Below, piece by piece: positions 28,532-51,563 of a DNA stretch of 51,563 nucleotides. The stretch is from Bdellovibrionota bacterium. GTDB lineage: Bacteria > JAGRBM01. The DNA is taken from contig JBFLVN010000001.1 of the NCBI GenBank assembly GCA_040758475.1, positions 1 to 51,563 on the forward strand. The letters are read 5' to 3'. Each line of letters starts with the position of its first letter. Positions within the stretch are counted from its first letter, which is position 1. The translations under genes were made by a program, and so were the position numbers. The notes under the pieces are model-generated. The model was not told the origin of the DNA. It worked only from the letters and a program-made list of their open reading frames with translations, and made no database searches.

Positions 28532-29443
28532 TCACCGCTCCACAATTTCACCAGTGTTGGCATCCACCATAAAGCGTTTGAGATCTTGATCAAAAACAAT
28601 CAAGTCGTTCTCATCAAATCCTTCAGTGATGAGCTCTGCAACCTTATCTGATGTGACTTTCATGAACTTTGTGTCTCGCATAATGTCAAACTGGATAAGT
28701 AGACCTGCAATGGGGACTCCGCCGCGATTCTCCACTTCTATCGTGGCATCCACCAACGGGACCTTCATATCCACGTGCCTGGGAGAATCCCAGCTTACCT
28801 CCTTCATTTTTCTTTCGATGAAATCATTGACCTGAACTCGCTCGCCTGGAAGGTTTAAGCAGACAGGCTGGCCGCGCCATAGGCCAGCCGATCCGCCTTT
28901 AATCGACTGTATATCGTCAGTGATTTTCTTACGGTCTTCCTCGTTGGTGACCGCAAACGTGACTTGGGGGGTGCTCGTTCCAATTATGTGGAACGTCAGA
29001 TGGATCGATTTGATTCGTCCTTCCCAATCAGATTCCTTAAACTCTCGCAATACGGCCAACTTTATTCCTTTATGCTTCGCGAACTTCTGGGCATCCCTAG
29101 TAAAGCCATTGCAGGTGAGAATTATTGATTCATCAGGATGAATATCATCCACAACGGCCGAAAAGTTCCGGATAATGTCCAAGCCTACTTTATCGCCTGA
29201 GACATCGAAGTCTTTGCACTCGATCAAGATTCGTCTTAGATTTCCCTCCTTACTTCGGACCGTCACATCTATTTGATGCTTAACGCCTGAGTCGCCCGAT
29301 AGCTCCAGGTCATGTATTACAACCTCATCCTGTTCTAACTTTTTAAGCAGAAATGCAGTCAGAATTTCGTAGCGGGTGCCCTGTTTCGTCGAGAGAATGG
29401 TGTGGTACTTATCGTGTATTTCATCATAACGTGACTTTGCCAT
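28532..29443 (-). CDS. Mrr-type PD-(D/E)xK restriction-endonuclease-domain protein with unassigned C-terminal domain (defence-cluster gene B)
   Basis: Core GTRYEILTAFLL...SGDSGVKHQIDVTV...RRILIECKDF...VGLDIIRNF...ILTCNGFTRDAQKFA. ATG at 29443 has AAGGTGG 8 nt upstream (the track start at 29455 is a GTG). Confidence 0.75.
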   Translation of the reverse strand: MAKSRYDEIHDKYHTILSTKQGTRYEILTAFLLKKLEQDEVVIHDLELSGDSGVKHQIDVTVRSKEGNLRRILIECKDFDVSGDKVGLDIIRNFSAVVDDIHPDESIILTCNGFTRDAQKFAKHKGIKLAVLREFKESDWEGRIKSIHLTFHIIGTSTPQVTFAVTNEEDRKKITDDIQSIKGGSAGLWRGQPVCLNLPGERVQVNDFIERKMKEVSWDSPRHVDMKVPLVDATIEVENRGGVPIAGLLIQFDIMRDTKFMKVTSDKVAELITEGFDENDLIVFDQDLKRFMVDANTGEIVER

Positions 29444-29492
29444 GCCGACTTCCACCTTTCCCCAGGGCCTTCGATTGTCCTGGTTTGGGATG

Positions 29493-30818: not shown

Positions 30819-30865
30819 AGTGGTTTTCTCCCTTCGCGCTCGTTATGTAATCTATACGCCCCCCC

Positions 30866-33655: not shown

Positions 33656-33665
33656 AATCTTGATC

Positions 33666-36600: not shown

Positions 36601-36695
36601 TGCGTGGGCTGGCCGCTCTCGTCCAACTCCCAATGGCGAGCCGGATACTCGTAGGGGGAGTTGAGGATCGGTTGCTCAAAGAAACGGTTGTCCAT
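33666..36695 (-). CDS. res: Type III restriction enzyme Res subunit (SF2 DEAH helicase + C-terminal PD-(D/E)xK nuclease)
   Basis: Walker A LATGAGKTTVMAMLIAW, DEAH in VLNDEAHHCY, helicase-C block MLTEGWDTNTVTHVLGVRAF. C-terminal nuclease-like YIPDFIVQVDD...LNLIIEIKGY. The likely start is the ATG at 36695 (MDNRFFEQPILNSPYEYP). The track ORF opens at 36728. Confidence 0.9.
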   Translation of the reverse strand: MDNRFFEQPILNSPYEYPARHWELDESGQPTQRIIEERRKVSFITPIPKPKKHKSKGQREIVFDEGKGLSTTDQQYETTSNINELRRHVDQWRALPNPNDWNVTPETARLLQHWRHYKFSDIRPFFCQVETIETVIYLTEVAPKLGKTGSKFLDHLANANNDANPELLRMALKLATGAGKTTVMAMLIAWQTINAVRRQGSKHFTRGFLVVTPGLTIRDRLRVLQPNDPDSYYQSRELVPGDMLGDVKHAKIVITNFHAFQMRERMEISKTGRALLQGRGQEIKTLETEGQMLQRVMPDLMGMKNVLVLNDEAHHCYREKPDGEDDDDDLKGEEKKEAEKNNEAARVWISGLETVKRKLGLARVIDLSATPFFLRGSGYAEGTLFPWTVSDFSLMDAIECGIVKLPRVPVADNIPGGDMPKFRNLWEHIRGKMPKKGREKSGTLDPLSIPVELQTALEALYGHYEKTFNLWKDAGIKVPPCFIVVCNNTSTSKLVYDYISGFHRENEDGSTTLENGRLALFRNFDEHGNQIPRPRTLLIDSEQLESGKTLDDDFRKMAADEIERFRREIVERTGDRSKAENLTDQDLLREAMNTVGKEGRLGESIRCVVSVSMLTEGWDTNTVTHVLGVRAFGTQLLCEQVIGRALRRQSYDLNEDNLFDVEYADVLGIPFDFTAKPVIAPPQKPRETIQVKAMSPERDALEIRFPRVQGYRIELGEERLTAAFTPDSTLELTPDQVGPSITRNAGIIGEGIDLNLVHTGDLRQSTLLFHLTKRLIYTKWRDQGDDPKLHLFGQLKRITKQWLDTCLVCKGGTFPAQLMYQELADMACERITAGITRALMGKRPIKAVLDPYNAEGSTKHVHFATSKSSRWQTDSRKCHVNWVVLDSDWEAEFCRVAETHPKVRAYVKNHGLGLEVPYRYGSTMRKYIPDFIVQVDDGRADTLNLIIEIKGYRGEDAKDKKATMDTYWMPGVNNLRQYGRWAFTEFTDVYEIEAAFKKMVESVTAKTGK

Positions 36696-36904
36696 TAGAT
36701 TTGCTTCCAAACCGTCTCTACCATTCAAAACGAGGTCTAATAACTGTATTTCCCAGATTCATCAAGGCGTTTCCGCCTTAAAATCCTCATATCCTCCAAG
36801 CCTTGTTTTAAGGAGCACTCGTTCTAAGAGCTGTATTTCTTGCAACCTAATGGAGTGGAGTTTTGGGCATTTATCAAAAGGAAGACACTGCGAACGGGTA
36901 GTTC

Positions 36905-37267
36905 TTACCTCCGTTGCCTTCGCTTCTTTTTCCCTTTCGCCAGCTTCGCGGCCGGCGCCTGGCGGAAGGGGTTGGGGATGGGGCCGCTCTCGAAGAGTTG
37001 AGGGATCGGCACCCCGTAGGCAATCGAGATCGCCTTGAGGATTCCCACGGAAACGTTTGTTTTCCCGCCTTCCATGCGTTGCAGGTAGATGGGGTGGATG
37101 CCGATGGCTTCCGCGGCCTCTTCCTGGGTGGCTCCCAGGGATAAGCGGATTTCCCGAAGTCTTGCCCCCAAACGGAGGCATTCCTTGCGGATAGCCTGGT
37201 TAATCTCAGGGCGTTGCCAGATTTCGCTTCGGCCGGGCTTTCGCTGGATTTTGGAGGAAGAAGCCAC
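36905..37267 (-). CDS. XRE-family HTH regulator upstream of res/mod (possible controller protein)
   Basis: HTH LGARLREIRLSLGATQEEAAEAIGIHPIYLQRMEGGKTNVSV. GTG start. Same strand as res, 209 nt upstream of the res start (ATG 36695). Confidence 0.7.
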   Translation of the reverse strand: MASSSKIQRKPGRSEIWQRPEINQAIRKECLRLGARLREIRLSLGATQEEAAEAIGIHPIYLQRMEGGKTNVSVGILKAISIAYGVPIPQLFESGPIPNPFRQAPAAKLAKGKKKRRQRR

Positions 37268-38162: not shown

Positions 38163-38903
38163 TGCATCATGCGCCTCCTGGCATCTTTTCGGAACGGAAA
38201 AGTCTTCGGGGACTTACGATCCGGTGAAAACGCCAGGAGTCTCTCTAGGGTGAGAGCGATCATAGCGGGGTCGAAGCGGTTTGCAAGATGGCCTCAGGTG
38301 CCCAAAGACTGAAAGGAAAAATCCGAGGACGAGGAGGAGGAAACCTGCAAGACACTGGATTTACTGGAAAAATAACCTGTGCCCACCAAGTAGGCACTCC
38401 TGCGGCCCTGGCTCTCAGGCTGGCGCGAAGGCGTAAACCCGGTTTACGGTCGCACGTTGGAAGGCAAAGGGTGGGCGCCAACTAAGTATGCACTAATGGG
38501 AGGAGCGCACTGTGCGAGTGCAGCCAAAAAACAGCCTTGTGGCGCGATTTTCTCAAAGATTACGGCTCCTTATGCTGCTTTTCCAAGTGTGAGCCCCGTA
38601 GCTATTACAAAACGGCCGACCGAAAATCGGATATGGCATCGTAGCAAAATGAGTAGTTCGGCGGCGGTGAGCGACGCTCAATGGCGATTTCCCGAGTTAT
38701 TTCAGGGAGTTGGGCTTGAAAAGGGTGTACACAAATAGTGCACGGATTTGAAAGGGGACGGTTGATTTCTCTCTTGCCATTGGTTTAATAAGCAAACTGT
38801 AACCAAACGAATTGGCCCTGTCGTGGTGGCGGGGCCTGTTCCAGCTAGCGGGGACAACAAGGGGCGGTTTTTGGGGAAAGAAACCGCTGGAGGAGTCATC
38901 ACG

Positions 38904-41900
38904 ATGAACCGCGTGAGATGGGGAGTGTCTCTATTCGTCTGTACATTTCTCGCCGTTGGGTCCGCCCATGCTGATCCAGTAACGGTCATCTTGGACGCGC
39001 AGGGCGATACCTACGTTCGGGGCGGCAGCAGCAATACGAATGAAGGAGCGTCGAGCTTCACCCAGGTGCAAAGCTCTGGGAACAATCGGGCGCTCGTTCG
39101 ATTCTCCCAGGTCGAACTGGAATCGGCGCTGGGCGATGGCTCCCTCATTTCAGCGACGCTCGAACTCACGATCACCGAGAACGGGGATAATTGGGGAAGC
39201 ACGGGCCGGACGGTGGACGCTCACCGGGTCACGGTGGATTGGGCGGAGGGGAATGGGCAGGTTTCGGGCCACAACCCTTCCGACCGTGGCGCGGGCTCTG
39301 GGGCGACGTGGAACTGCGCCATTGATTCGAACATCTCGAATTCGGCCAAAGACTGCATCGGTTCGACCGAATGGAACATGAGCGGCTCAGGGGCACGCCC
39401 CTGGGTAACGGTTCCCACGGCTTCTCTCCTTATTACGAACTCTCTAACAGGCGCCGTAACCTGGAACGTGACGAGCGACGTGGATGCGTTCCTCACGGGG
39501 ACGGGCAACTACGGTTGGGTCATTAAGAGGACTGACGAAGGGGCGAGCGGTCAGGCGGATTTCGGTTCCAGGGAAAGCGCAAATCCTCCAAGGCTTATTC
39601 TGGTCGTCGACATGCCGACCCCGAATTTCCCGCCCGCCATTTCGGGGAACCCACCGGCAAGAGTAAACGAGGGGGATTCCTATAGCTTCATTCCCACGGC
39701 CAGCGACCAGAACCCGGGGGACGTTCTTACGTTTTCGATCCAGAACAAGCCCGCCTGGGCCTCGTTTAACGCGAGCACCGGCGAGCTTTCGGGAACCCCA
39801 AGCCTCGCGGACGTTGGAATTTATGACAACATCATCATCACGGTCACCGATCCGGCGATGGCATCGGATTCCCTTCCGCCATTCTCTATCGCGGTGACGA
39901 TCACGTTGGAAGTGGTTGCCGATACCTACCTGAGAAGCGGGGCGGAGAATACGAACGAAGGAGGCTCTACTTTCCTTCGGGTGAGGGAATCGGGCGACAA
40001 CCGCGCGCTCGTGCGCTTTAGCCAGGCGGAACTTGAGGCGGCCGTAGGAGCAGGAGCGCTTTCCTGGGCACTTCTCGAAGCCGACATCCAGCACAACGGC
40101 GATAACTGGGGCACGGGCCGCGCCGTTGACGCCCATCTTCTTACTTCCGATTGGACGGAGGGGAATGGAAAGGTTTCGGGAATTAACCCCTCGGACCGTG
40201 GCACTGGGCCGGGGGCCACGTGGAATTGCGCGACGGACGCGGACATTGAGAACCAAGCCAAGGACTGCTCGGGAGTATCCGAGTGGAACATGAGCGGTGC
40301 CGGGCTTCGCCCCTGGGCGGAAGTCCCGACGGATACAGTAACGATCACAAACCTCCAGAGCGGCACGGTCGCCTGGGACGTGACGGCGGACGCCCTTTCG
40401 TTCCTCTCTGGGAGCGCCCCCAATTACGGCTGGCTCATTCGCAAGACCGAGGAGGGGCAACCCGGCCTCGTGGAATTCGATTCCCGCGAGAGCGGCAATC
40501 CCCCGCGTCTTGTGCTGGCCATTGATACGTCAGGAGTTTCGAACCATCCGCCCACGATCTCGGGGACGCCGCCCACGAGCGTTAATGAAGATAGCCTCTA
40601 CTCTTTCACCCCTACGGCCAGCGATCCGGATGCTGGTGATACGCTTACTTTCCAGATAACCAACAAACCCGCCTGGGCGGCGTTTAGCACTTCAAGCGGG
40701 ACTCTCTCCGGTACACCAACCAACGCCGACGTGGGCACTTACACCGGGATCGTCATATCCGTGCGAGATAGCGCCTTGGCTACGGCGACGCTTCCGCCGT
40801 TTTCAATCACGGTCGTCAATACAAACGACGCGCCAACGATCTCGGGTAATCCGCCCACGACGGTCAGCGAAGATTCTTTTTATACCTTTACCCCTTCGGC
40901 CTCTGATGACGATATCGTTCATGGGGATAGCCTGACATTCTCCATTCAAAACCAGCCCGCGTGGACCTCTTTCAATCTTCTGACCGGCGAACTCTCCGGC
41001 ACTCCCGCAAATGAATACGTAGGGGTCTACCCAGGAGTTGTTATCTGCGTTTCGGATGGGGAGGCGCCGGACGCCTGCCTTCCGGCTTTTTCGGTCACTG
41101 TTACAAACACCAACGATCCGCCGTCAATTTCAGGCACGCCCGATACGGCTGTTTTTGAAGATTCCTTCTATGGCTTCGTGCCAACAGCTCTCGATGATGA
41201 TCTCATCTACGGAGACACCCTCGAATTTTCCGTTCAAAACCTGCCGCCCTGGGCGGAGTTCGATCCGTTTACCGGCACGCTTTCCGGGGCGCCAGAGAAC
41301 GGGGATGTCGGTACCTACGCCGGAATTATCATCACGGTGACGGACGATTCCTTTGCCAGCGCGGCCCTTCCGGCGTTTTCGATCACGGTCGTTAATACGA
41401 ATGACGTGCCTACCATCTCGGGTACTCCGCCCACGACAGTCAGCGAAGATTCTTTTTATACCTTTGTCCCTTCGGCCTCTGATGACGATCTCGGCGATGC
41501 CTTGAGCTTCACGATTCAGAACAAACCGGCCTGGGCATCGTTTAGTGCGGTGACCGGGGAACTTTCTGGCACTCCCATTAACGCAGACGTGGGAACGTAC
41601 GTGGGCATTGTGATTTCGGTTCAAGACCTGGGTGGCGCGACCGCTTCACTACCCGCTTTTTCTATCACTGTTACGAACACGAATGACCCGCCCACCATCG
41701 CGGGTACGCCGCCCACGCAAGTAGCGCAGGGGGCCTTGTATAATTTTACCCCCTCCGCCACCGACGAGGATTTTCCGCATGGCGACGTACTGACTTTTTC
41801 GATCACAAACCGGCCTCCTTGGGCGAGCTTTGACACCGAAACCGGACGTCTCTTCGGAACACCCGGAAATGCCGACATTGGTACGTATTCCAGCATCGTT

Positions 41901-44900
41901 ATCACGGCGACCGATTCCTCGAACGCCAGCGCCCAGCTTGCGGCCTTTACCATTGAAGTTACGAACGTAAACGATCCGCCCAGTATCGGTGGGACGCCCA
42001 GCACGAGCGTGAATGCGGGCGAGCTTTATTCCTTTACGCCTACGGCGAGCGATCCGGACACTCCTTATGGGGATACGCTTACGTTCTCCGTTCAGAATCC
42101 GCCGCCTTGGGCCTCCTTCAGTACCGCTACGGGAGCGCTCTCGGGCACGCCTACGGTTGCCGATGCGGGTACGTACTCGGGCATTGTCGTTTCGGTACAA
42201 GATTCTTCTCTCGCCACGGCCGCTCTCGCGCCCTTTTCCATCGAAGTGGTTTATGTGGTGACGAACTGTGTTCCGGACTATGAGATCGTGCGCGTGAGCG
42301 TCGATTCTGAGGGCAACGAAGGGAACGATTGGAGCCTCGGCGGCTATCTCTCCGCCGACGGCCGTTATACGGCCTTCGATTCGATCTCCGACAACTTGGT
42401 GTCTAACGATACGAACTGGACCTACGACGTCTTCGTGTTCGACCGGCAGACCTGTGCGACAGAGCGCGTTAGTGTGAGTTCGGCGGGTGACGAGGCTGAT
42501 GCCTCTAGCTCGACGGCGGCTATTTCCCCTGATGGCCGGTACGTACTCTTCTATTCGGACGCAACCAACTTGGTGCCCGATGACACGAACGGATTTGGCG
42601 ACGTGTTCATGCGGGACCGGCTCTCTGGAGAAACCGAACGGGTGAGCCTCCGGGCGGACGGGGGAGAGGTTCAAGGAGAGAGCAGCTACAGCCGGTCGCT
42701 CTCCGCCGACGGGACTTGGGTGGTTTTTGAGTCCTTCGCCAGCGACGTGGTGCCAGGAGATACGAACAACAACTGGGATGTTTTCGTCCGGAACCGGCTG
42801 ACAGGGCAAGTCGAGCGGGCAAGCGTGACCAGTTCAGGGGGGCAGGTGTTTGGTGCCAGTTTTGGCGGCTATCTTTCGGCTGACGGAACCCTCCTGGTAT
42901 TCGACTCGGAGGCGTTCAACCTCGTGTCGGGGGATACTAATGGGGTATCGGACGTTTTTATCCGCGATTTGCAAACCGGCACTACTACTCGGGTGCTGGG
43001 AGAGTCCGGCGTGCAAGGCAATGGCTATAGCTGCTGTGGCGTTCTCTCTCCCGACGGGCGGTACTTGGTGTTCGAGTCGGAGGCCACCAACCTCGTTGCT
43101 GACGACACGAACGACGCGAGCGACGTATTCCTGCGCGACCTCGTGACGGGAGAATTTGAGCGCATAAGTCTTTCCTCGGTAGGTGAGGAGGGAGACGGGT
43201 TTAGCGCCTTCGAGGCGATTTCCGCTGATGGCCGGTACGTGCTCTTTTTCTCAGACGCCACAAACTTAGTGCCCGGCGACACGAATGCTTTTGGCGATGT
43301 GTTCGTGCGGGACCGGGCTTCGGGGCAGACCCGCCGGGCAAACCTGAACGCGCTGGGTGTGGAGGCGAGCGATTTCTCGGGTCCGGGCTCCATTTCAGAG
43401 GATGGCCGTTTCGTTGCTTTCAACAGCGGCGCTACGAATCTGGTCCCGAATGACACGAACGGGGCGTTCGACGTGTTCGTGGCGCCCAATCCGTTCCTGA
43501 TCTCGGCACCACCTCTGCCCCCGCTGATTTCCTCGGTCCAAATCGTCTGCACTCCCGGCAGTGAGCAGACCACGATTCTAGGAGAGGGATTCCTGCAACA
43601 AAATGGCACGGCCAACGGAGTCCTTATTACGACCCATTCAATCGCTCCGCTATCTGCTCCCGTAACCCGCCTTCTCACGGATTTGAACGCGGACGCGCAG
43701 AATACCCAAGTCGTGATCCCAGGGATCGTGAGTGGTTTGACCGACGTCGGCATTGTCGATGTTTCCCTTGCGACCGCCGAAGGGACATCCAACGTCGTCC
43801 GGGCTACGAGTTGCCTCGGGCAGGGTAATACGCCGCCTTCCATCGGTGGCGTCCCTCCGGCATCCGTAAACCAAGGGGAACTCTATTCCTTCATCCCGTC
43901 CGCGTTTGATCCCGATCCAACCGATGTTCTGGAGTTCATCATCGAAAACCAGCCCCTCTGGGCGTTCTTTGATCCGTTCTCCGGTGAGCTTTCCGGAGTG
44001 CCCGGAAATGACGATGTAGGCGTTCACGAGGACATCGTTATCTCGGTCACGGACGGCCGCTCTCTACCCGTTTCGTTGCCTCCGTTCTCCATCGAGGTTT
44101 TTAACGTCAACGATCCTCCAACCATTACAGCTTCCGCTCCGGCGTCCGCGAACGCCTTCAAGTTCTACCAGTTCGTTCCGGCTGCCGACGATCCCGATCT
44201 CCTCTACGGTGACGAGATATTCTTCTCCATTTCCGGCAAGCCCCGGTGGGCGCGCTTCGATGCGAACACCGGCGTTTTGAGCGGTGCCCCGGCGGACACG
44301 GATATCGGTGTATTTGCCGGAATCAGCATTTCGGTAAGAGATATCGCCGGTGAAACCGCGACGTTTGGTCCTTTCAGCATCGAGGTCGTTCCAGGCTCCC
44401 TTCCGCCGGACCCGGCCTTGGTCGCCACTCCCTTGGATCAGACCGTCGCCGCTAATATCTTCGACGGTACGGAATTTCTGTATTCGGGGTCTGATCCGAT
44501 TCAGATGGGGATTGAGGCCGAGGTGATTGTCCCCCGCCAAGCGGCGGTCATCAGGGGGCAGGTGCTTGGGACCGACGGAACGCCTTTACCCGGCGTTCGC
44601 GTCAGCATCGCCGATCACCCGGGTTATGGATTTACCTTTAGCCGAGCCGACGGCTGGTACGATCTAGCGGTAAATGGCGGTGGGCTTCTGACTCTCGACT
44701 ACGAGAGAAGCGGATTCATTAGCGCTCAGCGCCAGTCCGATATCCCCTGGCAGGATTACGTCGTACTCGATGAAGTGCGGCTCGTGGCTTACGACACCGC
44801 CTCTACGGTCGTTAATTTCTCGGACCCTATCCAAGTCCATCAAGCCAGCGTGGTGACCGACCAGGACGGAACCCGGCAAGCCGTGCTCCTCTTCGAGCAG

Positions 44901-47900
44901 GGAACCCAGGCATCGGCGGTATTGCCGGACGGTTCCGAGCAAGCTCTCTCGTCGCTCACCGTGCGGGCGACGGAACTCACGGTGGGCGAACACGGACCCC
45001 AGTCCATGCCAGCGGAATTGCCGCCGACTTCCGCCTATACTTATGCCGTTGAATTGAGTGCCGATGAGGCGGTAGCTCTTGGAGCCAAGAGCGTTTCTTT
45101 CTCTAAACCCGTCGTTCAGTACTTGGAAAATTTCCTCAATTTCCCGGCAGGGGCGATTGTACCCGTCGGATATTACGATCCCACTAAAAAAGCGTGGGTG
45201 CCGTCCGCTAATGGGCGCGTCGTCCAGATTTTAAGCACTGCCGGAGGGCAGGCGACGCTCGACGTGATCGGAGAGGGTAATCCGGCAAGTGCAGCCGAAC
45301 TGGATGAATTGGGTATTACGAGCGCCGAACTAACTACCCTGGCGTCGTTGTATAGTCCCGGACAAACATTGTGGCGGTACGCTATTCCCCACTTTACGAG
45401 CGTTGACGCGAACTGCCCGTATCATGATACTGAAAGAAAGCCCAAACCGCCGAAACCGAAATCAAAACCGAAAGATGATGACGAGGATGACCCGTGCAAA
45501 GCGAGCGGGTCTATTATTGGATGCTTGCGTCAAACACTGGGGGAGGCTGTCCGGGTCACCGGTACACCCTTTAGCTTGCATTACCAGAGCGAGCGTGTGG
45601 GCCGTACCGGCGCGTCATTGGCGCGTGAAATAACCTTTACAATAACGGATGACGATGTTCCTGCGGACCTGGGCCGCATTCTTGCTGAACTGTCAATCGC
45701 TGGGAGAACCTTGCGACAAGAGCTTGTCTCGCCGTTTGTTGCTAATCAAGAAGTTGTCTTTGTATGGGACGGCCTGGACGCTTATGGGCGCCCATTCAAC
45801 GGTTCGGTGCCTTATGACGTCAAAATAACGCACTTTTATCCAGGCCTTTATCGCACGTTTCTTTCCAGAATACTGCAAATGCTTACTGAGGCGGGATGCA
45901 GGATTATCGATGTTTTCGGACTTCCTGCCGACCTGCGAATTGTGGCAGTCGATTCTGCCGGGCAGCCATGTCAAGTATTTAGCTTAAACCTTGCTGCGGA
46001 CGTCGCGAGCCGGGAAGCGCAGGGAGTGAGCACCGAGTTTTCCGGAGTGTTCAAAAATAATTTTGATGTAACTACGGCCAGTATTGGCTTGGGTGGTTGG
46101 ACACTTAGCGAGCACCATCAGTACGACCCAGCGGGACGTGTTCTTTATACAGGTGATGGCGAGAGAAGGGTCGCCGACAATGTTGCCTGGGTGATTGAAA
46201 CGGTGGCTGGAATTGGCCCTTCTCCGCATGGCGGTTTCAGCGGTGATGGCGGGCCGGCCCTAGAGGCTAGATTGCAGGCTCCCTACGGGATGGCGGTCGC
46301 GTCGGATGGAAGCATTTATTTTGCCGCCGCCGGGAACCACCGAGTTCGCAAAATTTCGCCTTCGGGAGTTATCACGACTGTAGCTGGAAATGGAACTGCC
46401 GCGTCTACGGGGGACGGTGGTCCAGCACTGGCAGCGTCGCTCAATAGCCCGTTGGACGTGGCGCTGGCGCCTGACGGCAGTCTCTATATCGCAGAGAATG
46501 AGGGCAACCGTATTCGCCGCGTCGCCTCTGACGGACTCATCGAGACCGTAGCGGGAACCGGCATTGCGGGTTATTCGGGGGATGGTGGCCCAGCAACCCA
46601 AGCCAAGCTCTCGAAACCTTCCGCTGTTGAGCTTGCGCCAGACGGGACGCTCTTCATCGCCGATTGGTTGAATCGGCGCGTTAGGCGCGTTGGTCCAGAT
46701 GGAGTTATCACAACGATCGCGGGCAATGGGAACAACGGAGGCTTAATCGTCGAGGGACTGATGGCGACGAATGTGGGCATTGGCACCCCTATCGCTCTTG
46801 CGTGGCGTAGCGATGGTGATCTTCTCATTGCCAATTCCCGCACGACGGTGGGTGGTCCCCCAGGATTCCTCTATCGCGTAGACCCATCTGGCAGAATCCA
46901 CCCCGTTGCTGGTAACGGCTCTTACGGTGCTGGTGGAGATGGTGGAAGCGCCGCGCTTGCCGCGTTGGACCGGCCGCGTGGCGTCGCCATAGATTCAGAA
47001 GGGGTAGTTTACATCGCCGATTTTGAGCAAAACCGTTTGCGGCGAATCGGTACGAATGAGATTATCAACACAATCGCCGGAAATGGGTTGCCCCCATCAC
47101 TGGATGAGCAGGATGGTGTCGCGGTAGGGCCTCGGTTGAATGATCCTTCGGCGGTAGCTCTTTCGCCGGACGGCAGTATTTATGTCTCTGATTGGGGTAA
47201 TTCCCGCATCAAACGGGTCAAGCAAGCGATTCCAGGTTTCAGTGGGGATGAGATTCTGATCGCTTCGGAAGACGGTTCTGAACTCTATCGTTTTTCAAGC
47301 ACCGGCCGTCATTTAGGTACGCGGGATACGTTGACTGGCACAATCTTGTACTCCTTTACGTATAATTCCCAAGGGCAGCTTGTTGCCATGCGGGATCGAA
47401 ACGGCCTTGAGACGGTCATCGAGCGTGATCCTAGCGGGAATCCAACAGCGATAGTAGCTCCCGGCGGCCAGCGAACCGCCCTCTCTCTGGGGTCTGATGG
47501 GTACCTTGCGCGGATCGAAAATCCCGCCGGAGAGGCTGATCTATTTACATATACTGCTGTGGGACTGCTTTCTACACGGACTGATCCGAAGGGAAGCGTT
47601 TATAGATTCTATTACGATCCCAACAGGCGACTAATAAGAGACGAAGACCCATCGGGTGGCTTTACGGAACTCTCGCAGGTTGAAGCAGACGAATGCCAAC
47701 TGGACAGCGTGTCACTCAAGGACTGTGTAACAGTGACCAAGAGCACGGCTGAAGGGCGCATCACAACGTACCTGCGTGGAATCGATGCGTTTGATAATCG
47801 TGTGATTCAAGTGACTCATCCTAGTGGGCTGATCCAGAAGAGGGTGGGTGGTATTGATGGATCGTCTACCTGGACGGATGCAGACGGAACCATAGCAATA

Positions 47901-50294
47901 TTCTCTCCCACAGCCCATCCGCAGTATGGAATGCAGGTGCCAATAACCTCAGCAACTATTGCTCTGCCGAGTGGAATACTTTTTGCCGAAAATGCCTCTA
48001 TACAGACGTCCCTTTCCGAGCCCGGAAATCCAATGTCCCTCACTACTCGGACTGAAACGCGGACTATTAATAACAAGACTTATTCGGCCGTTTATCGGGC
48101 TGACGCTTTTGGTGGTGATTTACCGAGGACGTTGACGGTCACTAGCCCAGAAGGCCGAACGATCAAACAATCGTTAGATTCACTTGGAAATATTGTTTTT
48201 AAGCAACAGACAAATCTTATCCCGATAATCGCTATTTATGATCCAACGCGTGGGCTTCTGAATCAAATAACTCAGGGTTCCGGTCTTGAAACTCGTGCAA
48301 CGACATACACGTACGACATCAGAGATCGATTAGAGACCATCGTTGACTCCGAAATGCGTCAGATGTCTTTTGAGTATGATAACGCGGATCGCGTCACGAA
48401 AAAGACTTTGCCCGATGGACATTTCATCCTTTATGGATATGACGCGAATGGAAATCTAACGAGTGTCACTCCGCCAGGACGGCCCGCGCATATTTTCAAT
48501 TACACGCCAGTAAACCTAATGAATCAGTATTCGCCGCCGGATTTGTCTAATATTCCCATTGAAGCCACGGTTTACACCTACAACAGAGATCGTCAACTTG
48601 AATTGATAACTCGGCCTGATGGGCTTGAGATCGACTATTCTTACAATTCAAGGGGACAGGTTGCGTCAGTTCTAACTCCGGATGGGGCATTGGGGTATGT
48701 ATATGATCCGGTAAGCGGCAAACTCGCGACCTTGACAGCTCCCGGCGGCGTTACCCTTGATTATACCTATGACGGAAATCTGCTGGCTTCCACCACCTGG
48801 AGTGGGTCTCAAGTCGTAGGCAATGTATCTCGCACTTATAACAATGATCTGTTGGTCTCATTTCTTTCGGTCAACGCCGACTCTATTCCGCTTACTTATG
48901 ACGACGACAGCCTTCTTATCGGTGCCGGAACTCTTTCAATTGCCCGTGATCCGGTAACCGGTTTGATCACCTCCACCGCTTTGGGCGGTGTGACTGACTC
49001 TCGCGATTACAATTCTTTTGGTGAACTACAGGGTTACGACGCGTCCTATAATTTCTCCACTCTTTACAGCTCAAATCTCACACGGGATACGCTCGGAAGG
49101 ATCACCCAGAAGGTTGAAACGATTCTAGGAGCTACCACGACTTACGATTACTTCTATGATTCAATTGGCCACCTTGAGGAAGTCCACACGAATGGCATGA
49201 CGACGGCGGAATATCAATACGACGATAATGGTAATCGGCTTGTAAAGACAGGCCCAACGGAATCTGAAGTTGGTGGCTATGACGATCAAGATCGCCTTCT
49301 TTCCTATGGAGAGACTGGCAGCGAAGCTACGTATGTTTATGCTGACAATGGAGAACTGCTTTCAAAGACCGACATTAATGGAACGACGACATACTATTAT
49401 GATGGCTTAGGTAACCTGCGTGAAGTTATGCTGCCTAACGGTGATCTAATTGAATATATTGTTGACGGAGAGAATCGGAGAATTGGTAAGTTGCGAAATG
49501 GCGTGTTTGAAAAAGGATTGCTTTATCAGGACAAAGTGAGACCTGTTGCAGAACTGGATGGAAACGGAGTTGTAATGTCGATGTTCGTTTATGGCAGTGA
49601 GAGGTACTCACCAGACTATATTATAAAAGACGGGAATGAATTCCGGATTGTTAAAGATTATCTGGGAAGCGTTCGCTTGGTAGTGGAGGCGTCAACGGGA
49701 ATAGTTGTCCAAAGAATGGATTACGATGAATTCGGCAAAGTTGTGAATGATACTAACCCGGGGTTCCAGCCATTTGGTTTTGCTGGTGGGATATATGATG
49801 AAGATACCGGACTGGCCAGATTTGGTGCCAGAGATTACGACGCAAAGGTGGGCCGTTGGACGAGCAAAGATCCAATTCTATTTAAAGGCGGAGACACTAA
49901 TCTGTATGGGTATGTAGTTTCTGATCCCATTAACTTCATTGATCCTTTAGGAATGGCCGGGGTTGAATGTCACGTGCAGGGTTGTGTCGGAGGTGTATGT
50001 GCCGGTATTGAGGTCGGTTCCGACTGTCCGGGCGACGTCGACTTGACCTTGGAACTTGGTCTAGGGGCCGGTGCATCCGCAGGATGCTCGGCATCAGTGG
50101 GTACCGACGAGGGTGAACCCGAGGGACTCGCTGACGTTAGTTTTTATGCTGAAGCTAGTGCGGAAGGTGCAGGCCTAGAGGCTGGAGCCGAAGTATCGGT
50201 TGATACAGAAGGAAACGTATCAGCTGATGCGTCTGCCGGTTGGGAGGTTGGCGGAGGAGCTCAGGCATCCGCTGGAGTACGAATTGAATTTTAG
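38904..50294 (+). CDS. Giant secreted teneurin-like RHS/YD-repeat polymorphic toxin (about 3796 aa)
   Basis: ATG at 38904 with GGAGGAG upstream. Signal peptide MNRVRWGVSLFVCTFLAVGSAHA. Two ~210-aa modules with G[ND]NRALVRFSQ...NPPRL[IV]L. Nine Ig/cadherin-like repeats (P.ISG.PP..V.E...Y.F.P.A.D). Seven or eight TolB/PD40-like blades (S.DGRYV.F.S.A.NLV..DTN...DVF.RD). Carboxypeptidase-regulatory-like fold (IRGQVLGTDGTPLPGVRVS). NHL repeats (GDGGPA......P.GVA...DGS.YIAD..N.R.RR.). YD repeats. RHS core ending in YDAKVGRWTSKDPI...NLYGYVVSDPINFIDPLGM. Confidence 0.95.
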   Translation: MNRVRWGVSLFVCTFLAVGSAHADPVTVILDAQGDTYVRGGSSNTNEGASSFTQVQSSGNNRALVRFSQVELESALGDGSLISATLELTITENGDNWGSTGRTVDAHRVTVDWAEGNGQVSGHNPSDRGAGSGATWNCAIDSNISNSAKDCIGSTEWNMSGSGARPWVTVPTASLLITNSLTGAVTWNVTSDVDAFLTGTGNYGWVIKRTDEGASGQADFGSRESANPPRLILVVDMPTPNFPPAISGNPPARVNEGDSYSFIPTASDQNPGDVLTFSIQNKPAWASFNASTGELSGTPSLADVGIYDNIIITVTDPAMASDSLPPFSIAVTITLEVVADTYLRSGAENTNEGGSTFLRVRESGDNRALVRFSQAELEAAVGAGALSWALLEADIQHNGDNWGTGRAVDAHLLTSDWTEGNGKVSGINPSDRGTGPGATWNCATDADIENQAKDCSGVSEWNMSGAGLRPWAEVPTDTVTITNLQSGTVAWDVTADALSFLSGSAPNYGWLIRKTEEGQPGLVEFDSRESGNPPRLVLAIDTSGVSNHPPTISGTPPTSVNEDSLYSFTPTASDPDAGDTLTFQITNKPAWAAFSTSSGTLSGTPTNADVGTYTGIVISVRDSALATATLPPFSITVVNTNDAPTISGNPPTTVSEDSFYTFTPSASDDDIVHGDSLTFSIQNQPAWTSFNLLTGELSGTPANEYVGVYPGVVICVSDGEAPDACLPAFSVTVTNTNDPPSISGTPDTAVFEDSFYGFVPTALDDDLIYGDTLEFSVQNLPPWAEFDPFTGTLSGAPENGDVGTYAGIIITVTDDSFASAALPAFSITVVNTNDVPTISGTPPTTVSEDSFYTFVPSASDDDLGDALSFTIQNKPAWASFSAVTGELSGTPINADVGTYVGIVISVQDLGGATASLPAFSITVTNTNDPPTIAGTPPTQVAQGALYNFTPSATDEDFPHGDVLTFSITNRPPWASFDTETGRLFGTPGNADIGTYSSIVITATDSSNASAQLAAFTIEVTNVNDPPSIGGTPSTSVNAGELYSFTPTASDPDTPYGDTLTFSVQNPPPWASFSTATGALSGTPTVADAGTYSGIVVSVQDSSLATAALAPFSIEVVYVVTNCVPDYEIVRVSVDSEGNEGNDWSLGGYLSADGRYTAFDSISDNLVSNDTNWTYDVFVFDRQTCATERVSVSSAGDEADASSSTAAISPDGRYVLFYSDATNLVPDDTNGFGDVFMRDRLSGETERVSLRADGGEVQGESSYSRSLSADGTWVVFESFASDVVPGDTNNNWDVFVRNRLTGQVERASVTSSGGQVFGASFGGYLSADGTLLVFDSEAFNLVSGDTNGVSDVFIRDLQTGTTTRVLGESGVQGNGYSCCGVLSPDGRYLVFESEATNLVADDTNDASDVFLRDLVTGEFERISLSSVGEEGDGFSAFEAISADGRYVLFFSDATNLVPGDTNAFGDVFVRDRASGQTRRANLNALGVEASDFSGPGSISEDGRFVAFNSGATNLVPNDTNGAFDVFVAPNPFLISAPPLPPLISSVQIVCTPGSEQTTILGEGFLQQNGTANGVLITTHSIAPLSAPVTRLLTDLNADAQNTQVVIPGIVSGLTDVGIVDVSLATAEGTSNVVRATSCLGQGNTPPSIGGVPPASVNQGELYSFIPSAFDPDPTDVLEFIIENQPLWAFFDPFSGELSGVPGNDDVGVHEDIVISVTDGRSLPVSLPPFSIEVFNVNDPPTITASAPASANAFKFYQFVPAADDPDLLYGDEIFFSISGKPRWARFDANTGVLSGAPADTDIGVFAGISISVRDIAGETATFGPFSIEVVPGSLPPDPALVATPLDQTVAANIFDGTEFLYSGSDPIQMGIEAEVIVPRQAAVIRGQVLGTDGTPLPGVRVSIADHPGYGFTFSRADGWYDLAVNGGGLLTLDYERSGFISAQRQSDIPWQDYVVLDEVRLVAYDTASTVVNFSDPIQVHQASVVTDQDGTRQAVLLFEQGTQASAVLPDGSEQALSSLTVRATELTVGEHGPQSMPAELPPTSAYTYAVELSADEAVALGAKSVSFSKPVVQYLENFLNFPAGAIVPVGYYDPTKKAWVPSANGRVVQILSTAGGQATLDVIGEGNPASAAELDELGITSAELTTLASLYSPGQTLWRYAIPHFTSVDANCPYHDTERKPKPPKPKSKPKDDDEDDPCKASGSIIGCLRQTLGEAVRVTGTPFSLHYQSERVGRTGASLAREITFTITDDDVPADLGRILAELSIAGRTLRQELVSPFVANQEVVFVWDGLDAYGRPFNGSVPYDVKITHFYPGLYRTFLSRILQMLTEAGCRIIDVFGLPADLRIVAVDSAGQPCQVFSLNLAADVASREAQGVSTEFSGVFKNNFDVTTASIGLGGWTLSEHHQYDPAGRVLYTGDGERRVADNVAWVIETVAGIGPSPHGGFSGDGGPALEARLQAPYGMAVASDGSIYFAAAGNHRVRKISPSGVITTVAGNGTAASTGDGGPALAASLNSPLDVALAPDGSLYIAENEGNRIRRVASDGLIETVAGTGIAGYSGDGGPATQAKLSKPSAVELAPDGTLFIADWLNRRVRRVGPDGVITTIAGNGNNGGLIVEGLMATNVGIGTPIALAWRSDGDLLIANSRTTVGGPPGFLYRVDPSGRIHPVAGNGSYGAGGDGGSAALAALDRPRGVAIDSEGVVYIADFEQNRLRRIGTNEIINTIAGNGLPPSLDEQDGVAVGPRLNDPSAVALSPDGSIYVSDWGNSRIKRVKQAIPGFSGDEILIASEDGSELYRFSSTGRHLGTRDTLTGTILYSFTYNSQGQLVAMRDRNGLETVIERDPSGNPTAIVAPGGQRTALSLGSDGYLARIENPAGEADLFTYTAVGLLSTRTDPKGSVYRFYYDPNRRLIRDEDPSGGFTELSQVEADECQLDSVSLKDCVTVTKSTAEGRITTYLRGIDAFDNRVIQVTHPSGLIQKRVGGIDGSSTWTDADGTIAIFSPTAHPQYGMQVPITSATIALPSGILFAENASIQTSLSEPGNPMSLTTRTETRTINNKTYSAVYRADAFGGDLPRTLTVTSPEGRTIKQSLDSLGNIVFKQQTNLIPIIAIYDPTRGLLNQITQGSGLETRATTYTYDIRDRLETIVDSEMRQMSFEYDNADRVTKKTLPDGHFILYGYDANGNLTSVTPPGRPAHIFNYTPVNLMNQYSPPDLSNIPIEATVYTYNRDRQLELITRPDGLEIDYSYNSRGQVASVLTPDGALGYVYDPVSGKLATLTAPGGVTLDYTYDGNLLASTTWSGSQVVGNVSRTYNNDLLVSFLSVNADSIPLTYDDDSLLIGAGTLSIARDPVTGLITSTALGGVTDSRDYNSFGELQGYDASYNFSTLYSSNLTRDTLGRITQKVETILGATTTYDYFYDSIGHLEEVHTNGMTTAEYQYDDNGNRLVKTGPTESEVGGYDDQDRLLSYGETGSEATYVYADNGELLSKTDINGTTTYYYDGLGNLREVMLPNGDLIEYIVDGENRRIGKLRNGVFEKGLLYQDKVRPVAELDGNGVVMSMFVYGSERYSPDYIIKDGNEFRIVKDYLGSVRLVVEASTGIVVQRMDYDEFGKVVNDTNPGFQPFGFAGGIYDEDTGLARFGARDYDAKVGRWTSKDPILFKGGDTNLYGYVVSDPINFIDPLGMAGVECHVQGCVGGVCAGIEVGSDCPGDVDLTLELGLGAGASAGCSASVGTDEGEPEGLADVSFYAEASAEGAGLEAGAEVSVDTEGNVSADASAGWEVGGGAQASAGVRIEF
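40550..42250 (+). repeat. Six tandem ~285-nt coding repeats (Ig/cadherin-like He_PIG-type domains) inside the RHS gene
   Basis: Recurring PPTISGTPPT.V.EDS.Y.F.P.ASD ... TF.I.N.P.WA.F...TG.LSGTP.N.DVGTY..I.I.V.D units. Two units share a ~113-nt stretch (40801-40913 vs 41377-41489), near-identical over its last 63 nt. Confidence 0.85.
49956..50291 (+). other. C-terminal variable (toxin) domain of the RHS protein, 112 aa, unrecognised family
   Basis: Begins right after the DPLGM core boundary. Five Cys in the first 44 residues. Very acidic (0 Lys, 1 Arg, about 21 Asp+Glu). Gly/Ala/Ser-rich with GxxxG-like runs (LGLGAGASAG, GGGAQASAG). Ends in alternating hydrophobics, VRIEF. Confidence 0.7.
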
Positions 50295-50324
50295 GCCAGA
50301 TCTCTTGAATAGAGGTTAATTTAG

Positions 50325-50711
50325 ATGTCAGGACCGTTCCGTGAACGTTTTGCGAATCTACATCTCGGTGAAAAGATTGCTATTATCGTTATACCAGTTG
50401 CGTTTATTGTGGTGCCTATATATTTTACATATTCGGACGAATATAGAATGGCGAAAGAGTTTTGTTGGAATGCAGAATCTGTAATTGAGTCAATTGGACA
50501 GGTTCGAAGCGTAACATGGCGACCGTGGAAGGGATTCAGCAATAGGAGGGGAAAGGGGCGCGTGGTTTTTTACGTTGAAGGGATGACGGGCGAAGGCGAA
50601 CTAACTGTATTAATAAGAACCGATAGGAATGTTGGTTGCGTGGAGGTCAGAAGAGCTGTTTTAAAAGGCACAAATGGTGAGCGTGAATTGGATGGATGGG
50701 AATGCCGATAG
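50325..50711 (+). CDS. Small single-TM protein, candidate RHS immunity protein 1
   Basis: GAGGT RBS 7 nt upstream, 30 nt after the RHS stop. TM helix IAIIVIPVAFIVVPIYF followed by a ~90-aa domain. Low GC. Confidence 0.55.
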   Translation: MSGPFRERFANLHLGEKIAIIVIPVAFIVVPIYFTYSDEYRMAKEFCWNAESVIESIGQVRSVTWRPWKGFSNRRGKGRVVFYVEGMTGEGELTVLIRTDRNVGCVEVRRAVLKGTNGERELDGWECR

Positions 50712-51160
50712 GGTATTTTATGAATCCGACCAGAGTCGCTCTTCTAATTATTTCAGTAGCACTCACTGCTATCGTTGACCCATTTCGGGAAGTGGTAGGC
50801 AATCAATATAACTCGTTCAGTGAGTGTGTCGTTAAAAATCTAGCTATATATGCTTTCATGTTTGTCGGGCCATTGCTCGTTTTAACATTTCATTCGTTAC
50901 GTTTAAATGAATTTCCTTGGACTAAATCGTTTTGGGCGGAGAATCCATTCCATTTAAGAAATCCATTTCAACTGTTTCATTTTGTTTCCTGGACCATGCT
51001 TCTTTCCGGTGTGTTACTTATTATTCGGCAACTCTTGGTTTCATCTCAACTTGATTATGGCGCCCTGGCCATCCTTTTTATGGGGTCGTTCTTTCGCGGC
51101 GGTATCTTTTTGTCGGAGTTAATATTTTCAAATAAATTCACTAAAGAAAAAGAAGCGTGA
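50696..51160 (+). CDS. Four-TM membrane protein, candidate RHS immunity protein 2
   Basis: Overlaps the previous gene by 16 nt. Four hydrophobic helices (VALLIISVALTAIV, LAIYAFMFVGPLLVLTF, LFHFVSWTMLLSGVLLII, LAILFMGSFFRGGIFLSELIF). The lowest GC of the window. Confidence 0.55.
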   Translation: MGMPIGYFMNPTRVALLIISVALTAIVDPFREVVGNQYNSFSECVVKNLAIYAFMFVGPLLVLTFHSLRLNEFPWTKSFWAENPFHLRNPFQLFHFVSWTMLLSGVLLIIRQLLVSSQLDYGALAILFMGSFFRGGIFLSELIFSNKFTKEKEA

Positions 51161-51191
51161 CCATTTTGGTGAAAATCGAACACCTTTTTGT

Positions 51192-51216
51192 CTGAAAATT
51201 TTGGGAGACCCGCAGC
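51192..51216. repeat. Direct repeat copy 1 (ctgaaaattttgggagacccgcagc) at the right island border
   Basis: Matches 51475-51498 with one indel and one mismatch. Lies 17 nt beyond the stop of the uppS-like ORF, where GC rises. Confidence 0.6.
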
Positions 51217-51232: not shown

Positions 51233-51563
51233 TCACCGGCCCACAGTTCGCGAGAAAATTGCACGAACAGATTCAAACGCGCGAGTTCTAAAGCCGATTG
51301 CCCTCAAAACTCCCTTTGCCCCCGGCCAGGGTTGGGGCCAGGGCATGATTTCCGAGTAGGTACCCTGCCACGGGAGGAAGTTCGAAAGCCGCCGCTCGCC
51401 CGCGGTTCGGATTATGACGTCGGGTTCTGGCAGGCCGGCCGTAAATCCTCGCCCTTCCCCGTCGTGACGAAAGCCTGAAAATTTGGGAGACTCGCAGCCG
51501 GGAGGATACCCGGATGGCAGAGGATGTCGAAGGCGGCGAAAGGCTGAGGGCGGAGCTATTGAA
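51233..51563 (-). CDS. Isoprenyl transferase (undecaprenyl-diphosphate synthase, UppS-like), C-terminal part; open at window end, possibly a fragment
   Basis: Not in the track (open-ended). Reverse translation gives GLPEPDVIIRTAGERRLSNFLPWQGTYSEIMPWPQPWPGAK...LRAIGFRTRAFES*. This matches the UppS block D.(L/I)IRT.GE.R.SNFL.WQ..Y.E-x7-WP. The 30 codons nearest the window edge are not recognisably UppS-like. Confidence 0.5.
   Translation of the reverse strand, partial: SIAPPSAFRRLRHPLPSGYPPGCESPKFSGFRHDGEGRGFTAGLPEPDVIIRTAGERRLSNFLPWQGTYSEIMPWPQPWPGAKGVLRAIGFRTRAFESVRAIFSRTVGR
51475..51498. repeat. Direct repeat copy 2 (ctgaaaatttgggagactcgcagc)
   Basis: See copy 1. This copy lies inside the open uppS-like reading frame, 283 nt from copy 1. 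Confidence 0.6.

Follow-up and report, generated by a model that had tools for sequence, protein, structure and literature searches.

A giant teneurin-like RHS protein from a Bdellovibrionota bacterium ends in an orphan, acidic, β-amphipathic tail followed by two candidate membrane immunity genes

The stretch of DNA analyzed here, the complete contig JBFLVN010000001.1 (positions 1 to 51,563) from the metagenome-assembled genome of a Bdellovibrionota bacterium (GenBank assembly GCA_040758475.1), carries the gene for a giant secreted RHS protein of the teneurin-like type. The last 112 residues of this protein form a C-terminal tail, and two small open reading frames (ORFs), here called orfA and orfB, follow directly behind it. 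RHS and teneurin-like proteins are modular delivery cages in which the cargo defines the effect on neighboring bacteria. A first-pass annotation of the whole 51,563-nucleotide window, made from the letters alone, had proposed that the tail is a membrane-targeting toxin and the two ORFs its membrane-embedded immunity. The present study finds that the tail is β-amphipathic, non-helical, and non-enzymatic in character, and that orfA and orfB are of membrane nature. We give a probability of about 0.4 to the reading that the tail acts on the cell envelope as a non-enzymatic cargo and that the matching immunity is located in the membrane.

Results

The Carrier Is a Sec-Exported Teneurin-Like Protein

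The RHS ORF (38823–50294, 3823 codons) is open from a GTG at 38823, while in GenBank the protein begins at M28, has 3796 residues, and is deposited as MEW6774692.1 under the name "putative Ig domain-containing protein." Its N terminus, MNRVRWGVSLFVCTFLAVGSAHA|DP (..AVGSAHA|DP), read by eye, is a Sec signal peptide of typical form. Six Pfam families (PF05345, PF24517, PF25020, PF25021, PF25023, and PF05593) match the carrier, each above its curated cut-off. Together, the Pfam models describe PD40 repeats, two modules of the CBM96 type, and He_PIG Ig domains numbering at least eight, as well as TTR_TEN1-4 (E = 4.3e-29), TEN_NHL (4.9e-39), and TEN_YD-shell (PF25023, 3.1e-36) in the order seen in teneurin-like proteins; PF05593 matched at 2.4e-32, and none matched as a separate FN-plug. 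In architecture the carrier is a bacterial polymorphic toxin of the teneurin-like/RHS type with a signal for Sec export. No type VI secretion system (T6SS) genes were seen among the ORFs scanned on the contig.

The boundary of the tail is sharply defined. The NCBIfam model Rhs_assc_core (TIGR03696) matches at full length (1–76 of 76, E = 2.7e-21) at residues 308–385 of the translated segment 48801–50291, and because this match stops on the last residue of the motif DPLGM, which occurs once in the ORF, we take DPLGM to be the true junction between core and tail. The initial description of a DPLGM boundary followed by a 112-residue tail was therefore borne out. The autoprotease motif context at the end of the core is DPILF...SDPINFIDPLGM, and the precedent of RHS and teneurin-like proteins of solved structure suggests that the tail would be released autoproteolytically and encapsulated in the shell.

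When one genome per species was scanned with the C-terminal 497 residues of the carrier, nine loci were returned. The RHS core is common to eight of them at 46–70% identity (about 54%), and these come from the Acidimicrobiia, the Bacillota (two), the Chloroflexia, Parabeggiatoa, a deltaproteobacterium, KSB1, and the Acidobacteriota; the ninth, a Vibrio contig (34% identity), aligns with the repeat region only. Similarity stops at query residues 384–391 in seven of the eight core relatives and reaches residue 406 in the other (L004), and the tails of all eight are unrelated to one another and to the Bdellovibrionota tail. Because the relatives lose similarity at the same boundary, the tail is read as hypervariable cargo. 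The presence of this core type in metagenome-assembled genomes of at least seven distant lineages implies wide horizontal spread. The tails of L004 and L005 open with hydrophobic Cys/Gly/Ala-rich stretches (VACGGVCVAGVGIGIV... and RIAPLAIAIAICGGSGACEAAVAAALATATATLGIVAG..., respectively).

The Tail Is Acidic, Glycine- and Alanine-Rich, and Strand-Like Throughout

The composition of the tail is extreme. It has Cys at positions 5, 10, 15, 24, and 44, no Lys, and only one each of Arg, His, and Asn, with 20 Asp plus Glu, 23 Gly, and 19 Ala (Gly plus Ala, 38%) and a pI of ~4. Counting agrees with the first-pass annotation as to five Cys in the first 44 residues, no Lys, and one Arg; it upholds the acidity as well, with 20 acidic residues in place of the ~21 given there. 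The Gly/Ala runs noted at that stage, LGLGAGASAG and GGGAQASAG, are both present, as is the C-terminal SAGVRIEF. The GC content of 57.5% looks ordinary because of the amino acids encoded, 75 of the 112 codons (67%) beginning with G. Over the tail the RHS frame alone is open and the five other frames are full of stops; an origin as a frameshifted pseudogene was rejected because every other frame is closed. Since the tail offers no Lys, single Arg, His, and Asn residues, and so much Gly and Ala, an enzyme fold seems very unlikely on compositional grounds.

The strand-like alternation that had been described in the tail is real and far above chance. Its mean 11-residue hydrophobic moment at 180° is 1.64, as against 0.65 ± 0.12 in 2000 shuffles (z = 8.6), while the moment at 100° falls below that of the shuffles (z = –1.4). 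One register is occupied mostly by V/L/A/I/W/F and the other mostly by G/S/D/E, with the assignment of the two faces swapping around residues 50–70. The β-moment z of the tail (about 8.5) exceeds that of each of nine comparison sequences: three C-terminal domains (CTDs) of Paenibacillus/Solirubrobacter teneurin-like proteins predicted to resemble outer-membrane proteins (OMP-like; 2.9–4.1), the OMP-like CTD of Desulfosudis oleivorans (0.4), Escherichia coli OmpX, its sequence entered by hand (1.0), and four tails of the RHS relatives (–2.2 to 4.1).

No 19-residue Kyte–Doolittle window of the tail rises above 1.1, so the tail has no transmembrane (TM) helix. GxxxGxxxG occurs four times against 0.83 expected (p ~0.017), an excess that stems from the even periodicity; all four lie outside any hydrophobic helix, GTDEGEPEG being one of them. 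The helical glycine-zipper reading of the first-pass annotation fails on the hydropathy maximum and the α-moment. Two toxin types were rejected on the same data: the glycine-zipper membrane toxins (Tse4, EsxX, CdzC/D), since the motifs are there but none sits inside a hydrophobic segment, and the helical pore formers (Tse5-CT, colicin-type toxins, and the ionophores of contact-dependent inhibition [CDI]), by hydropathy and helical moment.

A C-terminal signal like that of β-barrels had also been suspected. The terminal ...A-S-A-G-V-R-I-E-F does fit the β-signal pattern, with hydrophobic residues at –1, –3, –5, –7, and –9 from the C-terminal Phe, but it merely continues the alternation that pervades the tail. 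Membership of an OMP family did not hold up: neither the Pfam nor the NCBIfam OMP models match the tail at E ≤ 10, and OmpX has 25 aromatic residues and the D. oleivorans CTD 23, compared with 4 for the tail.

Self-comparison gives a weak suggestion that the tail consists of two four-strand halves of ~52 residues joined by GEPEGLAD. An ungapped match at offset 60 pairs residues 13–48 with 73–108 (BLOSUM62 score 52) and, extended by hand to residues 1–52 versus 61–112, has 14 identities in 52 positions. The best gapped self-alignment (score 58; z = 2.4 and p ~0.02 relative to shuffles) is a different one, of short offset, with its end at residues 95/107. A single-sequence AlphaFold2 model of the tail is all strands, with those in the region of the second half at 59–69, 72–82, and 88–97, and has a mean predicted local distance difference test (pLDDT) score of 45, too poor to use; when this low-confidence model was searched with Foldseek, no match had an E value under 0.7 or a TM-score of 0.42 or above.

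Two Membrane ORFs Follow the Tail

The first ORF, orfA, starts 30 nt behind the RHS stop codon and in the same frame, with a Shine–Dalgarno-like AGAGG ~10 nt 5′ of its ATG. Two further in-frame TAG codons precede that ATG, and read-through from the RHS gene was rejected for this reason. Its TM segment (~residues 17–35 by Kyte–Doolittle) is followed by a basic domain of ~90 residues with three Cys, the pI of the whole protein being 8.9, and an N-in/C-out topology that would turn the basic domain toward the periplasm is weakly favored. The exact orfA sequence is missing from the protein collection, and because the accessions of the RHS protein and of orfB are consecutive, orfA is taken to be unannotated in GenBank. 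Its AlphaFold2 model (pLDDT 47) is unusable, and a Foldseek search with it gave nothing below E = 0.1 and only TM-scores under 0.42. The loose resemblance to Coa1/DUF1783 proteins that had been proposed for orfA was not recovered: zero Pfam or NCBIfam families match at E ≤ 10, and a PDB sequence search came back empty.

The second ORF, orfB, is deposited as MEW6774693.1 (locus tag AB1405_00190; 146 residues, ATG at 50720). Its spacing from orfA depends on the start chosen: the 16-nt overlap originally reported stands with the ATG at 50696 and gives way to an 8-nt gap with the GenBank start at 50720. By hand count, orfB carries seven Lys plus Arg on its N terminus, loop 2, and C terminus versus two on loops 1 and 3, and the favored prediction is an N-in/C-in topology in which the periplasmic loops are very short. 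Hydrophobicity confirms that both downstream genes encode membrane proteins, with one hydrophobic segment in orfA and four in orfB. It is likewise correct that the lowest GC of the window falls at these ORFs, the minimum 465-nt stretch being 50738–51202 (38% GC).

The Tail and Both ORFs Lie in a Cassette of Foreign Codon Composition

The GC content at third codon positions (GC3) declines along the RHS gene from 0.69–0.71 at 38.8–40.6 kb to 0.41–0.47 from 47.8 kb, that is, over its last ~2–2.5 kb, and is 0.40 in the tail and 0.38 in both orfA and orfB; total GC returns to 57% after 51161. Because of this common foreign codon composition, the 3′ part of the shell, the tail, orfA, and orfB are regarded as a single imported unit, which was probably acquired by recombination within the RHS core. 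The spacing of the tail and the two ORFs is tight as well. The replacement of RHS tips by recombination yields imported 3′ units of this kind. The unity of the cassette in GC3 is the best available evidence tying orfA and orfB to the tail.

The GC3 profile of the RHS gene as a whole is mosaic, with ~0.70 in the N-terminal adhesion part and 0.50–0.55 from the start of the teneurin superfold at ~45.4 kb. The 3′ portion of the gene may thus have been replaced more than once in succession.

The Tail, orfA, and orfB Are Orphans

Database searches left all three proteins as orphans, in keeping with the original impression that the tail is unlike known toxin families. Scans of the tail, orfA, and orfB against Pfam, NCBIfam, PADLOC, and PHROGs yielded nothing meaningful at E ≤ 1 to 10, the best profile match being heavy_Cys (TIGR04289) at E = 2.6. 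In a word-indexed search of 5.8e9 protein clusters, neither the tail nor orfA had a match, and orfB matched only itself. An exhaustive phmmer search with the tail through 1.84e9 representatives (~15 billion proteins) recovered its own protein (P0003) and two spurious repeat proteins. One of these, a 4710-residue Cys/Gly repeat protein (P0002), was rejected as a relative since its score sums 45 weak stretches; the other, a 514-residue repeat protein (P0004, E = 7e-4), was rejected on reading its sequence as an artifact of composition or of summed repeats. PDB sequence searches with all three proteins, tblastn against plasmids with the tail and orfA, a scan of viral contigs for orfA, and scans of metagenome contigs for the tail and orfB were empty. 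Against 17 published membrane-type or small immunity examples from teneurin-like loci (PMC13018210, Suppl. Data 6), orfA and orfB reached bit scores of at most 2.5.

One published family was examined more closely, namely the OMP-like CTDs of teneurin-like proteins from Paenibacillus/Cohnella/Solirubrobacter and D. oleivorans (PMC13018210, Fig. 3a and Suppl. Data 3 and 5). The tail shares with them a Cys/Gly-rich start immediately behind the cleavage motif and GxGxGxG runs, a C-terminal aromatic residue (present in three Paenibacillus and one Solirubrobacter CTDs, whereas that of D. oleivorans ends ...ALQE), β alternation in the three CTDs mentioned above, and a downstream multi-TM protein (after D. 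oleivorans_1). In contrast, the published CTDs are 136–145 residues long, have net charges of +5 to –8, and contain more aromatic residues, the tail being far more regular (z = 8.4) and more acidic. A hidden Markov model (HMM) built from four sequences of the published supplement scored the tail at –4.6 (rank 2186 of 5001 against shuffles), and Smith–Waterman z-scores were 1.3–2.1. Because neither measure is significant against shuffles, membership was rejected and the tail is not filed in this family. The Paenibacillus/Cohnella/Solirubrobacter CTDs themselves are a conserved set that might deserve a family model of its own; they start [FY]C[IV]G[AG]S.Y..[VI]G.GG..(Y)C and end C.QY(KW) or C..RW (PMC13018210, Suppl. 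Data 3 and 5).

Surroundings on the Contig

The RHS gene is preceded by a lower-GC island (18642–37000; 47–60% GC, compared with ~63% to its left) that has the look of a mobile or defense region (Table 1), and the teneurin-like toxin gene may belong to the same island. On the other side, two copies of a direct repeat of 21 nt, AAATTTTGGGAGACCCGCAGC, at 51196–51216 and 51478–51498, flank a 3′ fragment of uppS, the second copy having two mismatches. The copies are 282 nt apart, and none would be expected by chance. The first coincides with the abrupt rise in GC at the right edge of the cassette, and the repeat-flanked fragment may be an integration or recombination scar. Elsewhere, an 859-residue ORF (9029–11608, minus strand) joins LPG_synthase_TM (residues 48–343) to OEP/TolC-like outer-membrane efflux repeats (648–837); this may be a genuine fusion of an unusual kind, or else the mechanical ORF call has run two genes together.

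Table 1. Coordinates of the features in the window
Feature	Position	Strand	Description and basis
Giant secreted teneurin-like RHS protein (carrier)	38904–50294	+	Signal, 2 × CBM96, He_PIG, PD40, TTR, NHL, YD shell, RHS core, tail
RHS repeat-associated core	49722–49955	+	Plug with aspartyl autoprotease motifs; TIGR03696; ends ...SDPINFIDPLGM
Hypervariable C-terminal cargo (tail), 112 aa	49956–50291	+	Acidic, Gly/Ala/Cys-rich, all-β amphipathic; stop codon 50292–50294
Tail half 1, residues 1–52	49956–50111	+	All five Cys; putative first four-strand unit; self-comparison
Tail linker GEPEGLAD	50112–50135	+	Acidic, Pro-containing; between the halves
Tail half 2, residues 61–112	50136–50291	+	Ends AQASAGVRIEF; self-comparison, low-confidence AlphaFold2
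orfA, 128 aa	50325–50711	+	One TM; candidate immunity protein 1; ORF, Kyte–Doolittle; unannotated in GenBank
orfB, 154 aa	50696–51160	+	Four TM; candidate immunity protein 2; ORF, hydrophobicity
Low-GC3 cassette	47800–51200		End of YD shell and core, tail, orfA, orfB; left edge approximate and gradual, right edge (~51200) abrupt
Large serine recombinase	18642–20168	–	Island
Toprim/CHC2 primase-like protein	20442–23204	–	Island
M78/IrrE peptidase	24929–25498		Island
UvrD-like helicase, weak HigB-like N terminus	26404–28479	–	Island
Mrr/NERD nuclease	28532–29452	–	Island
Type III restriction-modification methylase	30866–33652		Island
Type III Res helicase-endonuclease	33666–36725		Island
uppS (undecaprenyl-diphosphate synthase) 3′ fragment	51233–51475	–	~80 codons and stop; Pfam Prenyltransf 158–198/219, E = 1.6e-12

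Discussion

Bacterial teneurin-like proteins (TLPs) form a class of polymorphic toxins with CTDs of ~15 kDa inside a YD shell (Raoelijaona et al. 2026, PMC13018210). Directly downstream of almost all TLPs lies an additional gene, and many of the downstream examples are small multi-TM proteins (PMC13018210, Suppl. Data 6). The Bdellovibrionota locus shares with the published TLPs the TTR, NHL, and YD shell modules, variable N-terminal adhesion modules, a Sec signal, a CTD that begins after a DPxG[LMQ] boundary, and an adjoining downstream gene, which in TLPs is often small and multi-TM. It differs in that the Bdellovibrionota lie outside the six phyla listed in that survey (PMC13018210), in the larger size of the carrier and smaller size of the tail (~11 kDa versus an average of ~15 kDa), and in having two downstream membrane ORFs rather than one. 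In addition, the tail, orfA, and orfB lack significant similarity to the published examples that were extracted. A functional precedent among TLPs is the hydrophobic CTD of the B. inaquosorum protein, which is toxic only with a signal peptide, that is, in the periplasm, and renders cells permeable to propidium iodide (PMC13018210).

A second precedent is provided by Tse5 of Pseudomonas aeruginosa, the C-terminal cargo of which (Tse5-CT) is a pore-forming RHS toxin, and by Tsi5, an integral membrane immunity protein with two predicted TM regions (PMC9637101, PMC10684867). In that case the membrane target was deduced from the membrane location of the immunity protein combined with the lack of a predicted enzyme (PMC9637101), and the present locus has the same ingredients: an RHS shell, a non-enzymatic cargo of no known family, and a candidate immunity gene for a membrane protein. 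However, in Tse5-CT (~16 kDa) both TM and amphipathic helices are predicted, and it enters lipid spontaneously, whereas the tail has no hydrophobic helix, is β-patterned, and carries a net charge of –19. Delivery differs as well, Tse5 relying on the T6SS (PAAR-like N terminus, VgrG4) and the carrier bearing a signal peptide.

Small four-TM proteins with an N-in/C-in topology and short periplasmic loops are the typical format of immunity proteins that act within the bilayer, such as those against pore-forming colicins. The immunity proteins of colicins and CDI ionophores are like orfB in this format but without sequence similarity to it, and the toxins they counter are helical bundles rather than β peptides. 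The small, Gly-rich, non-enzymatic glycine-zipper bacteriocins CdzC and CdzD of Caulobacter reportedly aggregate, kill by contact, and are paired with a membrane immunity protein; they differ from the tail in using type I secretion without RHS encapsulation and have no sequence similarity to it. CDI ionophore toxins have cognate CdiI immunity proteins (PMC11630599), and protection by two membrane proteins is documented for ExiCD, polytopic proteins that act against extracellular EsxX (PMC12744356).

Collectively, these comparisons and our analyses support, though at somewhat less than even odds, the reading introduced at the outset, in which the tail acts on the cell envelope and immunity resides in the membrane. 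Under this model, the aspartyl autoprotease of the core would cut off the tail, which the shell would hold inside, as in characterized RHS proteins. Released outside the cytoplasm of the target cell, the tail would assemble into a β-sheet oligomer that perturbs or permeabilizes a membrane of the cell envelope, and an acid-lined lumen would make any pore so formed cation-selective. The producer would be protected by one or both of orfA and orfB: orfA might offer its basic soluble domain to the periplasm and there bind the acidic tail, and orfB might act within the inner membrane, like Tsi5 and the immunity proteins of pore-forming colicins. Autoproteolysis and encapsulation, toxicity, membrane perturbation, and protection by orfA, orfB, or both are what we infer. 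A more specific version, in which an acid-lined tail of 2 × 4 strands with a β-signal-like end forms a cation-selective β pore, whether it assembles on its own or commandeers the β-barrel assembly machinery (BAM) of the target, and is countered by orfA and orfB together, appears decidedly unlikely.

The original proposal of a membrane toxin with membrane immunity thus survives in part: the position of the cargo, the lack of a matching toxin family, the two membrane ORFs with their shared foreign codon composition, and the Tse5/Tsi5 line of reasoning speak for it, whereas the glycine zipper, the OMP family, and the Coa1 likeness found no support. Several observations weigh against even the surviving part. 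A net charge of –19 disfavors spontaneous insertion into anionic membranes unless cations or low pH neutralize it, and the hydrophobic face of the tail is mostly Ala with four aromatic residues, unlike that of natural β-barrel membrane proteins. Period-2 amphipathicity is also compatible with a soluble β-sandwich or with a sheet of the silk or amyloid kind. The presence of membrane ORFs predicts little, because several small multi-TM ORFs also follow the RHS relative L001, the tail of which is quite different. Moreover, orfA was not called by the Prokaryotic Genome Annotation Pipeline (PGAP), and as all three proteins are orphans, the co-occurrence of the tail with membrane genes offers no comparative check. 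Finally, 3 of 9 tested TLP CTDs inhibited growth, and the CTDs of M. fibrata, A. pedis, and Methylocaldum were used in toxic chimeras (PMC13018210); D. oleivorans and P. oryzisoli, whose CTDs are OMP-like, thus seem not to have supplied any of the three that were toxic in E. coli.

The foremost alternative, which we consider somewhat unlikely, is that the tail is not a toxin at all but inert, degenerate filler left by decay of the cassette or a silk- or amyloid-like adhesive sheet, with orfA and orfB being unrelated cargo or non-functional. Its low complexity (38% Gly plus Ala, 67% G-initial codons) points in this direction, and its GAGASAG-type runs with period 2 are, we assume, comparable to those of sheet-forming fibrous proteins. 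Likewise, zero homologs of the tail among ~15 billion proteins means no sign of conservation, orfA is unannotated, and AlphaFold2 finds no confident fold. Yet the reading frame of the tail is clean and the sole one open, and random decay would erase an amphipathic register that is held over nearly all 112 residues (z = 8.6). The tail also occupies the exact position of the toxin in all characterized RHS and teneurin-like proteins, in nearly all published teneurin-like loci the CTD has a partner gene downstream (PMC13018210), and orfA and orfB are packed tightly behind the stop codon and share the GC3 of the cassette. Alternatively, the tail could be a soluble, disulfide-stabilized, acidic β toxin that either binds to a target in the periplasm or outer membrane or removes divalent cations from the envelope, orfA being the true immunity protein and orfB accessory or unrelated. 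The five Cys of the tail and the three of the soluble part of orfA would suit the oxidizing compartment that Sec export can reach, the charges are complementary (pI ~4 versus 8.9), the first gene after an RHS toxin is usually its immunity gene (PMC13018210), and the strong negative charge of the tail speaks against lipid insertion. This model is nonetheless unlikely: it has no nameable target, it leaves the co-transferred polytopic orfB unexplained, the composition of the tail appears too simple for a specific binding fold, and the topology of orfA, on which it depends, is weakly predicted, with an unusable AlphaFold2 model (pLDDT 47).

Two further models would make the tail a membrane protein of a known kind or an enzyme. 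The tail could mimic an outer-membrane protein, an eight-strand (2 × 4) unit with a β-signal that the BAM of the target cell inserts as a leaky barrel or by which it is jammed. About eight strands of 9–12 residues with short turns fit 112 residues, hydrophobic residues alternate back from the terminal Phe, and OMP-like CTDs are predicted in teneurin-like proteins of P. oryzisoli and D. oleivorans, the latter with a 105-residue multi-TM gene downstream (PMC13018210). By eye there is even a 21-residue likeness to the Paenibacillus/Solirubrobacter CTDs (AEGAGLEAGAEVSVDTEGNVS versus AEG-GLGAGAGVSVDFNGDVA), although it is not significant by the HMM and Smith–Waterman tests given above. With no Pfam OMP or autotransporter family at E ≤ 10, few aromatics (4 versus 23–25 in OmpX and the D. 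oleivorans CTD), a lumen that would hold ~15 to 20 acidic residues and one basic residue and hence be unstable in an eight-strand barrel, and a terminal motif that is just the end of a global period-2 pattern, this model is improbable. Most improbable by far is that the tail is a helical glycine zipper, a pore former like Tse5, the colicins, or the CDI ionophores, or a small enzyme. The excess of GxxxGxxxG and the membrane proteins downstream could be cited for the helical versions, but the hydropathy maximum of 1.1 and a helical moment below that of shuffles contradict them, and GTDEGEPEG cannot sit in a membrane. For an enzyme, catalytic-type residues are wanting, and none of these versions finds a match in Pfam, NCBIfam, PADLOC, or PDB sequences.

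If the tail is toxic, it would represent a new physicochemical class of cargo, small, acidic, and all-β, distinct from the known non-enzymatic cargoes Tse5-CT and the B. inaquosorum CTD, which are hydrophobic and helical. If membrane insertion by a β structure is true, the tail would be the first β-type membrane-inserting cargo of an RHS or teneurin cage. Its small size (~11 kDa) would make it a convenient peptide with which to study how β-sheets assemble at membranes. If it is inert, the tail would be one more orphan on a mosaic RHS gene. The locus also places a teneurin-like toxin in the Bdellovibrionota, a phylum of predators outside the six that have been surveyed (PMC13018210).

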